IMG/VR virus record: IMGVR_UViG_2667527608_000007
Origin: a virus
Taxonomy: Duplodnaviria > Heunggongvirae > Uroviricota > Caudoviricetes
Reading direction: 5' to 3' (one strand)
DNA length: 9,003 bases
Part shown: piece by piece, positions 3,950-8,656 of the stretch
Numbering within the stretch: position 1 is the first letter of the stretch
Layout of the letters: each line of letters starts with the position of its first letter
The notes under the pieces: generated by a model
Databases searched by the model: none
Seen by the model: the letters and a program-made list of their open reading frames with translations, nothing else
What the model was told of the DNA's origin: nothing
Position numbers and translations under genes: made by a program

Positions 3950-4690
3950 ATGAAAAACATTGCGGCAGTTGGGGTTCTTGAACGTATTCGCAGACTTGCA
4001 CCACAGGGGGCGGTTCCACCGTACCGGACGGTGGAGGAGTGGCGGGAATGGCAACTTGCTGAAGGACGAAAACGCAGCGAGGAGATTAACCGCCTGAATC
4101 ATCAGGTGCGGGTTGAAAAAATCCTGAACCGTGCGGGCATCCAGCCGCTTCACAGGAAGTGCTCATTCGGGAACTACCGGGTGCAGAACGACGGTCAGCG
4201 CCATGCTCTGAGCCAGGCGAAATCCATTGCCGATGAATTGATGACCGGATGTACAAACTTCGTGTTCAGCGGTAAACCTGGTACCGGTAAAAATCACCTG
4301 GCAGCAGCGATTGGCAATCGGCTGATGGCGAAGGGGAGAAGCGTGATTATCGTCACCGTGTCCGATGTCATGAGCGTGTTGCATGACGGCTACGACAACG
4401 GCCAGTCCGGGGAAAAATTTTTACAGGAGCTTTGTGGAGTTGACCTTCTGGTCCTTGATGAAATTGGCATGCAGCGGGATACGCGCAACGAGCAGGTCAC
4501 GCTGAACCAGATAGTCGACCGCAGAACGGCTTCGATGCGTAGTGTCGGAATGCTGACGAACCTGAATCACGCAGCGATGAGCACACTCCTCGGAGATCGG
4601 GTGATGGACCGTATGACCATGAATGGTGGTCGTTGGGTGAATTTTAACTGGGAGAGCTGGCGGTCAAACGTTGGACGTCAGGGTATGTGA
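3950..4690 (+). CDS. DnaC/IstB-like AAA+ helicase loader (246 aa); YdaV-like
   Basis: Walker A-like GKPGTGKNHLAAAIG and Walker B LLVLDEIG. Start is 7 nt after the initiator stop, with GGGGG upstream. Typical replication-module partner. Confidence 0.85.
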   Translation: MKNIAAVGVLERIRRLAPQGAVPPYRTVEEWREWQLAEGRKRSEEINRLNHQVRVEKILNRAGIQPLHRKCSFGNYRVQNDGQRHALSQAKSIADELMTGCTNFVFSGKPGTGKNHLAAAIGNRLMAKGRSVIIVTVSDVMSVLHDGYDNGQSGEKFLQELCGVDLLVLDEIGMQRDTRNEQVTLNQIVDRRTASMRSVGMLTNLNHAAMSTLLGDRVMDRMTMNGGRWVNFNWESWRSNVGRQGM

Positions 4691-4715
4691 GAATTTTTGA
4701 CGAGGTAAATTTTCG

Positions 4716-5486
4716 ATGGAAACTGTATTGCATGCACTGAAAGCGATGGGAAAAGCCAATTCTGTTGAACTGGCGGCGCGGCTTGATATCAGCCGTGAAG
4801 AAGTTCTTAACGAACTGTGGGAACTCAAAAAAAATGGCGTTGTTGATAAAACGGGTCACACCTGGTTTCTGGCTGTCGAAGGTGAAGCCGGGGTAACCGA
4901 AGGGCAGGCACTACAACCTGAAGCGCCGGATGTGGTAACCGAAGAGGTCGCTCCAAAAGTTACCGCAGACATGATGGTTGAGTTTATCGGTCAGGATGGT
5001 GCTAAAACGTGTGAGGAACTGGCGGGTAAGTTCGGCGTCAGTACTCGCAAGGTTGCTTCCACGCTGGCGGTGGTAACCGCAACGGGGCGGCTGGCACGCG
5101 TTAATCAGAACGGTAAATTTCGTTACTGCATGTCGGGGGGTAATTTACCAGCAGATCCGAAAGCCGCGCCGGTAACGAAAAATGATGGTAAGGCCTTTCC
5201 TCAGCCAGCAGGTGCTGCGTTACCAGTCCGGGAAGCCGCAACACAGGAAGAAATTAAAACAGAAACTGTGGCGGACATTGTGCAGCCGTTGCTATCGTTT
5301 ACCGAAACGCAAGCAGATGAGCTGATTTTTCCGTCCCTGCGCAGGGCAAACCTGGCGCTGCGCAGGGCGAAAAGTGATGTTCAGAAGTGGGAGCGAGTCT
5401 GCGCCGCGCTGCGGGAGCTGAACAAGCACCGGGATATTGTTCGACAGATTACTGATTCTTCCCGCCGTGTTGTATCGGAAAAGTGA
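4716..5486 (+). CDS. Hypothetical prophage protein with two winged-helix-like repeats (256 aa; DUF1627-like)
   Basis: Two similar HTH-like segments (ANSVELAARLDISREEVLNELWELKKNGVV and KTCEELAGKFGVSTRKVASTLAVVTATGRLARV); GAGG ribosome-binding site upstream. Confidence 0.6.
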   Translation: METVLHALKAMGKANSVELAARLDISREEVLNELWELKKNGVVDKTGHTWFLAVEGEAGVTEGQALQPEAPDVVTEEVAPKVTADMMVEFIGQDGAKTCEELAGKFGVSTRKVASTLAVVTATGRLARVNQNGKFRYCMSGGNLPADPKAAPVTKNDGKAFPQPAGAALPVREAATQEEIKTETVADIVQPLLSFTETQADELIFPSLRRANLALRRAKSDVQKWERVCAALRELNKHRDIVRQITDSSRRVVSEK

Positions 5487-6618: not shown

Positions 6619-6653
6619 AAACGTTCGCCGGGATTCACACCAAAGGAGGGAAT

Positions 6654-6758
6654 ATGTCGGATGATATTTCACTGGCAATGGAAGGTGCTCTGGCTGTTAT
6701 TGCTGTTGTGGGCGTTTACTGCCTGGTTGTGTTTTTGATGGATCGACTAGGGAACTGA
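6654..6758 (+). CDS. Micro-ORF, 34 aa predicted single-TM peptide (MSDDISLAMEGALAVIAVVGVYCLVVFLMDRLGN)
   Basis: AAAGGAGGG at 6642-6650 immediately upstream of the ATG; about 22 consecutive hydrophobic residues; below the ORF-track cut-off. Confidence 0.45.
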   Translation: MSDDISLAMEGALAVIAVVGVYCLVVFLMDRLGN

Positions 6759-6766
6759 ATTCATTA

Positions 6767-6788
6767 CGATATGGGAATTCCCATATCG
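6767..6788. promoter_or_regulatory. 22-bp perfect palindrome CGATATGGGAATTCCCATATCG, 13 bp upstream of the predicted hok promoter -35
   Basis: Exact dyad symmetry read from the sequence; no T-tract follows, so it is not a classical intrinsic terminator. Confidence 0.5.
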
Positions 6789-6800
6789 GGTAAAAACGGT

Positions 6801-6828
6801 TTGCGGTAAAGCGAGAGTTAAGTAGAAT
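6801..6828 (+). promoter_or_regulatory. Putative promoter of the mok/hok mRNA (-35 TTGCGG 6801-6806, 16-bp spacer, -10 TAGAAT 6823-6828)
   Basis: It sits just upstream of the 5' element (6833-6846) that is complementary to the mRNA 3' end, giving a transcript of about 420 nt ending at the terminator at 7254. Confidence 0.45.
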
Positions 6829-6889
6829 TGCTGCGGGTGCTTGAGGCTGTCTGCCTCGGGCATGCCACCGTAAGGCAGACAGAGAAAAG

Positions 6890-6955
6890 CCCCAGTTAAC
6901 ATTACGCGTCCTGCAAGACGCCTAACATTAATCTGAGGCCAATTTCATGCTAGAC
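6890..6955 (-). ncRNA. Putative Sok-like antisense RNA overlapping the mok translation-initiation region (predicted from a promoter only)
   Basis: Minus-strand -35 TTGCCT (6990..6985), 17-bp spacer, -10 TAACCT (6967..6962) would start a transcript antisense to the mok ribosome-binding site (GAGG 6934-6937) and start codon (6947). The 3' end is not defined. Confidence 0.25.
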
Positions 6956-7159
6956 ATATGTAGGTTAGCCTCTTACGCGCCGAAAGGCAAGGAGAAGCAG
7001 GCTATGAAGCAGCAAAAGGCGATGTTAATCGCCCTGATCGTCATCTGTATCACCGTCATAGTGACGGCACTGGTAACGAGGAAAGACCTCTGCGAGGTAC
7101 GAATCCGAACCGGCCAGACGGAGGTCGCTGTCTTCACAGCTTACGAACCTGAGGAGTAA
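6947..7159 (+). CDS. mok: Mok-like reading frame (70 aa), in frame with and containing hok
   Basis: MLDICRLASYAPKGKEKQAMKQQ... closely parallels my recollection of E. coli MokC (MLNTCRVPLTDRKVKEKRAMKQH...), where mok is an in-frame N-terminal extension of hok. GAGG ribosome-binding site 9 nt upstream. Confidence 0.6.
   Translation: MLDICRLASYAPKGKEKQAMKQQKAMLIALIVICITVIVTALVTRKDLCEVRIRTGQTEVAVFTAYEPEE
7004..7159 (+). CDS. hok: Hok/Gef-family type I toxin (51 aa)
   Basis: MKQQKAMLIALIVICITVIVTALVTRKDLCEVRIRTGQTEVAVFTAYEPEE is near-identical to my recollection of HokC/Gef and HokD/RelF. AAGGAG ribosome-binding site at 6988-6993; single TM helix; conserved Cys and the RTGQTEVAVF motif. Confidence 0.9.
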   Translation: MKQQKAMLIALIVICITVIVTALVTRKDLCEVRIRTGQTEVAVFTAYEPEE

Positions 7160-7228
7160 GAGACCCGGCGAGGGAGAAATCCCTCGCCACCTCTGATGAA
7201 TCAGGCATCCTCAACGCACCCGCACTTA

Positions 7229-7254
7229 ACCCGCTTCGGCGGGTTTTGTTTTTT
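7229..7254 (+). terminator. Rho-independent terminator of the hok transcript (stem ACCCGC/GCGGGT with TTCG loop, then T-run)
   Basis: ACCCGCTTCGGCGGGTTTTGTTTTTT read directly. An additional perfect 9-bp hairpin with GAAA loop (GGCGAGGGA-GAAA-TCCCTCGCC) lies at 7167-7188, just after the hok stop. Confidence 0.7.
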
Positions 7255-7326
7255 CCTGGCATTCTGGTTTACAATTCGCACGCCAGCCTGAACAACTGGC
7301 ACCTGCTGCGCCAGCAGAGACAACCG

Positions 7327-7605
7327 ATGGCGCACGATACCAAATTATACAATTCTGATGATTCTGCCGTCTTTGCCAGCAGGCGCGGACGGTGTTTTCA
7401 CGCATTCAAATCTGACTGGTACCAGCATCCCCCATGCACTGAAGAACAGGCCGAATGGCTCATTCAGTGTTACCGCAGGCGCGGATGCGAGGTTAAAAAA
7501 GCCCTTAGCCTCGACTACCGTCACTGGATAATCTCCGTCAGGCTCCCTTACTCCGAACGGCCACCGCGTCCGTCCCGCACATTCCAGCAACGGATCTGGA
7601 GGTAA
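7327..7605 (+). CDS. Small Cys-rich hypothetical protein (92 aa from ATG 7327), in the position occupied by rem in the Qin prophage
   Basis: ORF downstream of the hok terminator. The track's 7246 start would overlap the terminator T-run, so ATG 7327 is preferred. Four cysteines (C-x15-C-x10-C-x6-C). Weak ribosome-binding site. Confidence 0.45.
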   Translation: MAHDTKLYNSDDSAVFASRRGRCFHAFKSDWYQHPPCTEEQAEWLIQCYRRRGCEVKKALSLDYRHWIISVRLPYSERPPRPSRTFQQRIWR

Positions 7606-7606
7606 T

Positions 7607-8656
7607 GTGCGGGTATTACTTCGACCTGTTCTGGTACCGGAACTCGGTCTGGTTATCGTTAAGCCAGGCCGTGAATCAATGTCAGCATTCCATAACGGCA
7701 GAATACTGGTGGAGCCGGAACCAAAAAGCATGCGAGCTCTGCCGTCCGGGGTTGTACCTGCCGTTCACCAGCCGCTGGCGGAAGATAAATCACTACTGCC
7801 ATTTTTCAGCGATGAGCGGGTGAGCCGTGCTGCGGGTGGCGCTGGTGCACTGTCTGACTGGTTATTACGTCACGTGAAATCCTGCCAGTGGCTACACGGT
7901 GATTATCATCACAGCGAAACCGTCATTCACCGTTACGGTACCGGCGCAATGGTGTTGTGCTGGCACTGCGACAACCAGTTGCGTGACCAGACATCCGAAT
8001 CACTCGAGCAACTTGCTCATCAAAACCTGTCAGCATGGATGATTGACGTCATCGGTCACGCAATAAGCGGTACGCAGGAGCGTGAATTATCTCTGGCTGA
8101 ATTATCCTGGTGGGCGGTCCGCAATCAGGTGGCGGACGCGCTACCGGAAGCGGTATTACGTCGTTCGCTGGGGTTGCGTGCGGAAAAAATCCGCTCCATG
8201 TACCGTGAAAGCGACATCGTACCGGGAGAGCAGACCGCCACCAGCATACTGAAACAGCGCACAAAAAATCTTGCGCCGCTGCCTCACGCCCACCAGCAAC
8301 AGAACCCACCACAGGAAAAGACGGTGGTCAGCATTGCCGTTGATCCTGAGTCTCCGGAATCTTTCATGAAACGACCTAAACGTCGCCGCTGGGTTAACGA
8401 GAAATACACTCGCTGGGTGAAGACACAGCCGTGTGCGTGTTGTGGTAAGCCAGCCGACGATCCCCATCACCTGATTGGTCATGGTCAGGGCGGAATGGGG
8501 ACAAAATCTCACGATATTTTCACGCTACCGCTGTGTCGGGAGCATCACAACGAGCTTCATGCGGATCCGCTGGCGTTCGAAGAAAAGCATGGTTCTCAGG
8601 TTGATTTAATTTTTCGTTTTCTTGATCACGCCTTTGCAACTGGCGTGCTTGGGTAA
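7607..8656 (+). CDS. ydfU: DUF968/YdfU-like prophage protein with C-terminal HNH-like Cys/His motif (349 aa from GTG 7607)
   Basis: C-terminal CACCGKPADDPHHLIGHGQGGMGTKSHDIFTLPLCREHHNELH. Size matches Qin YdfU as I recall it. GGAGG lies only 4 nt upstream of the GTG, so the start is uncertain (alternative ATG at 7679). Confidence 0.65.
   Translation: MRVLLRPVLVPELGLVIVKPGRESMSAFHNGRILVEPEPKSMRALPSGVVPAVHQPLAEDKSLLPFFSDERVSRAAGGAGALSDWLLRHVKSCQWLHGDYHHSETVIHRYGTGAMVLCWHCDNQLRDQTSESLEQLAHQNLSAWMIDVIGHAISGTQERELSLAELSWWAVRNQVADALPEAVLRRSLGLRAEKIRSMYRESDIVPGEQTATSILKQRTKNLAPLPHAHQQQNPPQEKTVVSIAVDPESPESFMKRPKRRRWVNEKYTRWVKTQPCACCGKPADDPHHLIGHGQGGMGTKSHDIFTLPLCREHHNELHADPLAFEEKHGSQVDLIFRFLDHAFATGVLG

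Follow-up and report, generated by a model that had tools for sequence, protein, structure and literature searches.

The window analysed here, a 9,003-nucleotide stretch of the Caudoviricetes record IMGVR_UViG_2667527608_000007 from IMG/VR, carries at about positions 6793-7255 a hok/mok/sok type I toxin-antitoxin cassette of the HokD type. We are highly confident that this cassette is self-contained and that its mechanism follows, by homology, that of hok/sok from plasmid R1 and of hokW-sokW. It has the hok toxin gene, the overlapping mok frame, a promoter, an intrinsic terminator, RNA segments that pair over a long range and, on the minus strand, a candidate gene for the antisense antitoxin Sok. 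An earlier sequence-only reading of this DNA had described a complete hok/mok locus with fold-back pairing of its mRNA. All the features that it listed are found at their positions by direct reading of the sequence, and the claim is backed by Pfam, Rfam, PHROG 251, the RefSeq hokD label, covariation and predicted folds. The putative sok gene, absent from that list, is supplied here. The sequence was also examined for contradictions to the hok/mok/sok assignment, and none was found. Here, we describe the sequence elements, their conservation and covariation in relatives, and the predicted alternative folds of the RNA. The cassette itself is already known: it is annotated in RefSeq, it falls in a named PHROG, a 91%-identical relative has been studied experimentally, and the paradigm is decades old. 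However, RefSeq annotates the hokD coding sequence alone in an identical genome, and mok, Sok and the RNA elements are unannotated there. Coordinates for these elements are added here, and hokD of Escherichia coli (E. coli) K-12 is shown to be a 5'-truncated derivative that occupies the same prophage slot.

Results

The hok open reading frame (ORF) occupies positions 7004-7159 of the plus strand, with its ATG at 7004 and its TAA at 7157-7159. It encodes a HokD-type protein of 51 amino acids and is preceded by the Shine-Dalgarno (SD) sequence AGGAG at 6990-6994. The protein matches the Pfam family HOK_GEF (PF01848) over profile positions 1-42 of 42, with an E-value of 2.3e-23 and 81.9 bits against a cutoff of 22. 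It also matches PHROG 251, 'MokW-like host killing', at 2.8e-33, a family that PHROG places in the category 'moron'. The leader, 6835-7009, matches the Rfam model RF01794 on the sense strand with 114.3 bits against a gathering cutoff of 59, the model being aligned in full (1-157). Furthermore, the 491-nt locus is found with 100% identity in many E. coli genomes, mostly Shiga toxin-producing E. coli (STEC) of serotypes O103, O45 and similar ones, and identical DNA is labelled in RefSeq as 'type I toxin-antitoxin system toxin HokD' (protein WP_001303917.1). Of 5426 complete E. coli genomes, 4737 have related copies; the median is 2 copies per genome and the highest number 11. Comparison with Hok/Gef family members upheld the family membership of the toxin. 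The near-identity to chromosomal Hok/Gef toxins that had been claimed for it holds for K-12 HokD, to which 50 of 51 residues are identical, but not for HokC/Gef, which is 84% identical.

The mok ORF (6947-7159, plus strand) extends hok in frame on its N-terminal side and ends at the hok stop codon. As had been proposed for the ATG at 6947, which lies 57 nt (19 codons) upstream of the hok ATG and in frame with it, the extended frame is open, giving a product of 70 amino acids. The mok SD, GAGG, is at 6935-6938, 8 nt upstream of this ATG. The presence of this SD and of the in-frame ORF suggests that hok translation is driven through the overlapping mok frame, and we infer that the two are coupled. 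The minus-strand ORFs 6747-6902, 6973-7137 and 7134-7262 overlap the RNA elements or the hok ORF and are presumed to be non-coding.

At its 5' end, the segment GCGGGTGCTTGAGG (6833-6846) is complementary to the 3' segment CCTCAACGCACCCGC (7209-7223) with a single bulge at C7215, and an inverted-repeat search recovered the match as two repeats. RNAduplex gives -33.6 kcal/mol for 6833-6852 against the 3' untranslated region, while dinucleotide shuffles give -20.1 ± 2.7 kcal/mol, and 0 of 2000 shuffles were as low. These short 5' and 3' segments were used because RNAduplex, applied to the whole 220 nt upstream and 130 nt downstream, returned long uninformative chains. On either strand of the whole 9-kb window, the 5' 20-mer finds no better non-self partner than the 3' element. 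The pairing corresponds to two known elements of hok mRNAs. The translational activator, tac, is GGGUGCUUGAGG (6835-6846), and the fold-back inhibitory element, fbi, is CCUCAA(C)GCACCC (7209-7221), in which C7215 is bulged and which is paired with a probability of about 1.0 in the full-length ensemble.

Covariation in relatives argues that this pairing is maintained. A one-genome-per-species scan with a single-protein query returned 60 loci. The relatives were picked by regular expressions on both the 5' and the 3' motif, and the aligned set consists of 34 distinct full-length transcripts from Escherichia, Kluyvera, Photorhabdus, Pantoea and Citrobacter, on which the minimum free energy (MFE) structure of the window was projected. 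Paired cells make up 87.5% across the set, compared with 39-47% (about 42%) after sliding of the partners. There are 35 pairs with changes on both sides, where sliding leaves 11-20, and the observed values of pairing and covariation were reached by 0 of 500 shuffles. In the tac/fbi column pair 6/407, U-A occurs 24 times, C-G 9 times and U-G once, and further exchanges are seen at columns 12-14. A 5'/3' helix of 11-12 bp is kept in all 14 distinct combinations, and cognate partners beat permuted ones (p ~1e-4). The Photorhabdus rows have no bulge, and MAFFT misregisters the distal half of their fbi; the counts at columns 398-403 therefore understate the pairing, and duplexes computed for each sequence show that all of them pair. 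Helix 2, the leader stem-loop, is 89.5% paired and helix 16, the 3' stem-loop with a GAAA loop, 88.8%, each with 4 pairs changed on both sides.

The fold-back pairing of 6833-6846 with 7209-7223 thus stands as complementarity beyond chance, but its outer two pairs do not belong to it with the same strength. They are paired in 10-15 of the 34 relatives, and G6833 and C6834, which face G7222 and C7223, probably lie upstream of the transcription start and are probably untranscribed.

The mok SD with its next base, GAGGC, and the anti-SD element ucb, AAAGCCCC, are invariant in 34 of 34 relatives. In the window, ucb (AAGCCCC) is located at 6887-6893. Decayed copies of the cassette (L051, L052 and L059) carry frameshifts, while the ORF and all the RNA elements of the window are intact.

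The leader stem-loop (6847-6882) has the 10-bp stem that had been noticed before, a perfect complement of 6847-6856 with 6873-6882, and is extended by further pairs. The 3' stem-loop (7167-7188), also listed earlier, has 9 bp and a GAAA loop, GGCGAGGGA-GAAA-TCCCTCGCC; it folds at -19.7 to -20.7 kcal/mol (z = -5.4) and is presumed to protect the 3' end of the processed mRNA. Mutations in its R1 equivalent, the last stem-loop, abolish function (PMC9841398).

The hok/mok promoter (6801-6828, plus strand) consists of the -35 hexamer TTGCGG (6801-6806), a 16-nt spacer and the -10 hexamer TAGAAT (6823-6828), as described in the sequence-only reading. In 34 of 34 relatives, a TA...T hexamer that agrees with the consensus at 4 or more of 6 positions has its end exactly 6 nt ahead of GGG. 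This spacing favours a start near 6835, the base at which the RF01794 match begins. The same promoter arrangement is found in K-12 hokC, in hokW-type loci of Shiga toxin 2 (Stx2) phages and in plasmid hok loci. Downstream of the 3' element, where a terminator had been called, a terminator scan found a 7-bp stem at 7228-7245 followed by TTGTTTTTT. This intrinsic terminator (7228-7255), AACCCGC-TTCG-GCGGGTT and then the T-run, folds at -13.3 kcal/mol (z = -4.1). With its start placed at G6835 and its end at the T-run, the full-length hok mRNA would span 6835-7255, about 420 nt.

On the minus strand, the putative Sok antisense RNA gene, of about 77 nt, spans 6879-6955 and would be transcribed from 6955 to 6879; it was transferred by alignment from the annotated K-12 sokC. 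Its promoter (6962-6990) has a -35 TTGCCT at 6990-6985, a 17-nt spacer and a -10 TAACCT at 6967-6962. The RNA is complementary to the mok SD and to the mok start codon. Its predicted fold (-32.9 kcal/mol, z = -5.5) has a single-stranded 5' tail of 11 nt, a long hairpin and a U-rich end. All 34 relatives have a Sok promoter, which is TTGCCT-17 or TTGACC-17/18 followed by a hexamer beginning with TA or CA. In hokW-sokW, a promoter-less ('pro-less') sokW mutant lost antitoxin activity (PMC8621323), and comparison of primer YO-421 from that study with a sokW-type locus indicates that the hexamer altered there would be this same -10 TAACCT. The Rfam model RF01794 is named 'sok antitoxin', but it covers the sense strand, from the 5' end of hok mRNA to the hok AUG, and gave no match on the Sok-encoding strand, so that an annotation based on Rfam alone would put the antitoxin on the wrong strand and with the wrong extent.

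The mok extension varies with the Sok promoter. The 19-codon in-frame extension occurs in 17 of 34 relatives, and 3 more have a longer one. Relatives in which the Sok promoter has one extra base, TTGACC-18 (L011-L013, L016 and L025-L036), have no ATG in frame upstream of hok, and the 19-codon extension is found only with TTGCCT-17 or with a second compensating indel, as in hokC. The extension being tied in this way to the spacing of the Sok promoter, these sequences suggest that the Mok peptide itself is not what is conserved.

A separate observation concerns the hok frame. Codon 47 is a tyrosine codon, TAC, followed by G, which makes a TACG motif at 7142-7145, and TACGAA is invariant in 34 of 34 relatives. 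A-to-I editing by TadA changes the equivalent tyrosine of hokB to cysteine and is said to apply to hokC, hokD and hokE (preprint 10.1101/2025.08.07.668861).

Predicted RNA switch

Structure prediction over the transcript gave two alternative states. The full-length RNA (6835-7254) has an MFE of -176.1 kcal/mol (z = -6.8), and its MFE structure contains both the tac-fbi helix and the pairing of ucb with the mok SD. When the last 63 nt are removed, the MFE structure pairs tac with ucb, GGG(U)GCUU with AAGCCCC. According to the pair-probability predictions, ucb-SD pairing falls from 0.99 in the full-length RNA to 0.57-0.61 in the truncated one, while tac-ucb pairing rises from 0 to 0.35-0.43, so the truncated ensemble is split. 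The leader stem-loop is predicted in both. In addition, the first 32 nt (6835-6866) fold at -20.7 kcal/mol, a structure that takes 0.80 of the ensemble (z = -4.8) and hides tac; this predicted metastable hairpin of the nascent RNA (6837-6863) would sequester tac before fbi is made. These predictions reproduce the pathway of folding described in the literature, as summarised in PMC9841398.

On this basis, the cassette of the window would work as follows. A constitutive promoter would start an mRNA of about 420 nt at about G6835, and in the nascent RNA the 5' hairpin would mask tac. In the finished RNA, tac (6835-6846) would pair with fbi (7209-7221) and ucb (6887-6893) would sequester the mok SD. 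With these two pairings, the full-length RNA is proposed to be stable and neither translated nor bound by Sok. Slow exonucleolytic trimming from the 3' end, back to the GAAA hairpin (7167-7188), would remove fbi; tac would then switch to ucb and the mok translation start would be opened. As long as the short-lived antisense Sok (6955 to 6879, minus strand) is made, it would bind the trimmed form and lead to its decay, with RNase III cleaving the Sok duplex. Once Sok synthesis stops, mok would be translated, and coupled translation of hok would give the 51-residue inner-membrane toxin, which would depolarise and kill or lyse the cell. We infer transcription, processing, Sok binding and toxicity for the window copy from its homologues; K-12 HokD, identical at 50 of 51 residues, and HokW have been reported to be toxic when overexpressed (10.1101/2025.08.07.668861; PMC8621323).

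Several points weigh against this interpretation. The NCBIfam Hok models score below their curated cutoffs (NF007279, 48.1 bits against 73; NF007290, HokA, 39.9 against 89), so the name HokD is supported by near-identity to the K-12 protein rather than by a family model; both models are tuned for other subgroups of Hok. The -35 of the hok promoter is weak, with 3 of 6 matches to TTGACA by direct comparison, and a consensus promoter scan did not list this promoter because such a -35 falls under its thresholds. The scan did not list the Sok promoter either, and comparative positions were therefore used for both. Because the relatives were selected by regular expressions for both motifs, the paired percentage of helix 1 is inflated, although compensatory changes do not arise from such a selection. 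Finally, intact chromosomal hokA, hokB and hokC were reported not to give post-segregational killing, as cited in a preprint (10.1101/2025.08.07.668861), so that an intact structure is no guarantee of a phenotype.

Comparison with known hok systems

The closest toxin compared is K-12 HokD (relF), encoded in the Qin prophage, which differs from that of the window at a single position, I16 in the window and L16 in K-12. From about 6989 on, the DNA of the hok SD, the ORF, the 3' hairpin, fbi and the terminator is nearly identical in both, and both genes occupy the same lambdoid-prophage slot, upstream of the DUF968 (ydfU) gene and Q. However, the promoter, tac, ucb, the mok start and sok are replaced in K-12 by relBE, while the window keeps the whole cassette. 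As a result of this replacement, the homology to the window starts in K-12 only at the hok SD, and hokD is the third gene of the relBE operon, with no control of its own. The gene order in Qin is relB-relE-hokD-rem-ydfU(DUF968)-Q, with rem as an extra gene downstream compared with the window. The contrast with K-12 hokD drawn in the sequence-only reading is therefore upheld and sharpened: the slot is the same, and pairwise alignment has no similarity upstream, where relE sits. Judged from these sequences, the window holds the intact, ancestral form of the locus, and K-12 hokD is a 5'-truncated derivative. Another rearrangement is found in E. coli ECMA0423 (L005; CP178302.1, 1947710-1949062), where the toxin is that of K-12 HokD and fbi is intact, and where the leader (5' ...GACTGCATGTGGCTATGTGCC...) has no tac. 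This would be a second kind of 5' rearrangement, unlike the relBE one of K-12.

Among complete cassettes, hokW-sokW of Sakai prophage 5 (Sp5), an Stx2 phage (PMC8621323), has about 91% DNA identity to that of the window, with a toxin of 51 amino acids in both and with the same hok promoter, tac and fbi sequences and Sok -35 and -10. The toxins differ at their C-termini, ...AVFVDYESEK in HokW, as read from primers YO-560 and YO-369 and an aligned Stx2-phage locus, and ...AVFTAYEPEE in the window. Their positions also differ: hokW-type loci are near the attachment site in 933W-type phages, whereas the cassette of the window is in the nin region.

The core locus hokC (gef)/mokC/sokC has a toxin 84% identical to that of the window. 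Its mok is in frame with hok, K-12 mokC being annotated as sharing the hokC stop, and sokC starts 9 nt inside mokC, as does the Sok proposed for the window. However, hokC is located in the core chromosome next to nhaA, it is disrupted by IS186 in K-12 with loss of fbi, and it has a shorter Sok hairpin and a different Sok promoter, TTGACC-17-CACTCT.

The R1 hok/mok/sok locus (parB) has a toxin identity of only about 40% (37% to one R1 Hok sequence), and it belongs to a plasmid replicon and not to a prophage. Nevertheless, tac, fbi, ucb, the mok SD, the metastable hairpin and the 3' protective hairpin of R1 (PMC9841398) all have counterparts in the predicted folds of the window, and antisense Sok overlaps the mok start in both. 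In the window, the Sok-target hairpin exceeds that of hokC-type or plasmid-type loci by about 18-20 nt.

Prophage context

The carrier is a Rac/Qin-type lambdoid prophage of a Shiga-toxin-type E. coli, and the window is its early region. From position 127 on, it differs from E. coli O103:H2 12009 (NC_013353.1) by a single base, at 7979. It contains dicB, DicF and ydfC, genes for a RacR-like repressor and a CII/YdaT-like protein, replication genes and genes for DUF1627, DUF977 and DUF551 proteins; next comes the hok cassette, which is followed by a small gene, the DUF968 gene, rusA and Q. The cassette is in the nin region. The synteny DUF968 (ydfU)-rusA-Q is common to the window, the O103:H2 genome, K-12 Qin and the functional lambdoid phage mEp460, in which the cassette is in the same place. 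At 379-430 of the minus strand is the small RNA DicF (Rfam RF00039, 76.7 bits, full model), and a dicB homologue is located at about 16-204 of the same strand, by offset from the identical RefSeq genome. Taken together, they identify a Qin/Rac-like prophage.

The homology shared with other phages runs from about 6788-6793 to about 7230-7270, just past the terminator, and the flanks differ in Shiga toxin phages. With these limits of homology, the cassette behaves as a promoter-to-terminator moron. In the identical annotated genome, no insertion sequence (IS) and no relBE were found within ±9 kb of the cassette, in agreement with its description as intact, not IS-disrupted and not downstream of relBE. 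The accompanying statement that the locus is autonomous holds in part: the cassette is self-contained from promoter to terminator, but a lambdoid prophage carries it as cargo, and it is no free-standing locus of the chromosome. The window confirms lambdoid prophages of STEC as carriers in which hok cassettes travel as morons.

Biological role

The role of such a cassette in a prophage can be read in several ways. One possibility, which we would put forward only tentatively, is that it helps lysis when the prophage is induced and does not serve maintenance: Sok would fall, Hok would reach the inner membrane, and phage release would be earlier or larger. In Sp5, mitomycin C eliminated sokW RNA and increased HokW, an effect that required RecA, and deletion of the locus halved the released phage (PMC8621323); the locus of the window has in common with this hokW-type locus its promoters, Sok and 91% of its DNA. 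Furthermore, the cassette lies within the early-right operon and has the orientation of its neighbours, so that read-through after induction would run against the Sok promoter. However, hokW is found in a different part of its phage, near the 933W-type attachment site, and the C-termini of the two toxins differ.

It is rather doubtful that the cassette, although structurally intact, is physiologically silent, that is, transcribed with too little Hok to kill, like the intact chromosomal hokA, hokB and hokC, and hitch-hiking on the prophage. The weak hok -35 would fit such a state, and the several copies per genome (median 2, maximum 11) could buffer each other through cross-reacting Sok RNAs. 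However, every regulatory element is retained, with covariation across genera, which speaks for selection acting on the RNA switch, and the 91%-identical hokW-sokW has a measured phenotype in its native prophage (PMC8621323).

We consider it unlikely that the role is addiction, in which cells losing the prophage are killed, or defence, in which infection by other phages is aborted when host transcription is shut off. Post-segregational killing is the established behaviour of plasmid hok/sok, and R1 hok/sok is cited in PMC8621323 as excluding T4. According to a preprint (10.1101/2025.08.07.668861), hok genes are about fourfold enriched in prophages; the same source finds no enrichment of hok beside defence systems and cites the chromosomal homologues as showing no post-segregational killing.

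A more specific version of the lysis proposal, which we regard as quite improbable, is that prophage induction directly activates the cassette and makes it an induction-coupled device for lysis or its timing, and not an addiction module. The cassette is oriented like the replication genes and Q. Antiterminated read-through from upstream would then collide with the convergent Sok promoter, and the read-through hok RNAs would gain a foreign 5' extension and fold unlike the native transcript. An explanation of the ORF and hairpins by chance resemblance or as the remains of a pseudogene has a negligible probability and was rejected, given E-values of 1e-23 to 1e-33, 114 bits in Rfam, 0 of 2000 shuffles matching the duplex, and an intact ORF and RNA elements.

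The window cleanly illustrates the ancestral, intact form of the rearranged K-12 hokD/relF, with little import beyond correct annotation. It adds no new kind of system, but this copy could be used to separate lysis help, prophage retention and phage exclusion.

Neighbouring features

Directly left of the start of the homology (about 6789-6793), and just past the stop of a small upstream ORF, is a perfect 22-bp palindrome, CGATATGGGAATTCCCATATCG, at 6767-6788. It may serve as a hairpin terminator, bind a protein or mark a boundary of recombination. The upstream ORF (6654-6758, plus strand), preceded by GGAGG at 6645-6649, encodes a strongly hydrophobic peptide of 34 amino acids, MSDDISLAMEGALAVIAVVGVYCLVVFLMDRLGN, a second small membrane peptide directly upstream of hok. 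Pfam, NCBIfam and PHROGs gave no match for it, and RefSeq lists it as 'hypothetical'. On the other side of the cassette, the window (7256-7330, compared with 4600-5100 of the K-12 locus L002) lacks rem, a gene that separates hok from the DUF968 gene in K-12 Qin and in mEp460. An ORF of 92 amino acids (7327-7605) corresponds to PHROG 1212, of unknown function; its K-12 counterpart is conserved and unannotated there.

Cassettes of the hokD type, with 86-88% identity, are also found on many plasmids of E. coli, Shigella and Salmonella (H53-H71). These plasmids are about 70-190 kb in length, most of them about 92-101 kb, and among all 861 plasmid hits the commonest predicted mobility is non-mobilizable. 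The plasmids with hokD-type cassettes may be phage-plasmids, which would make them another vehicle for the cassette.

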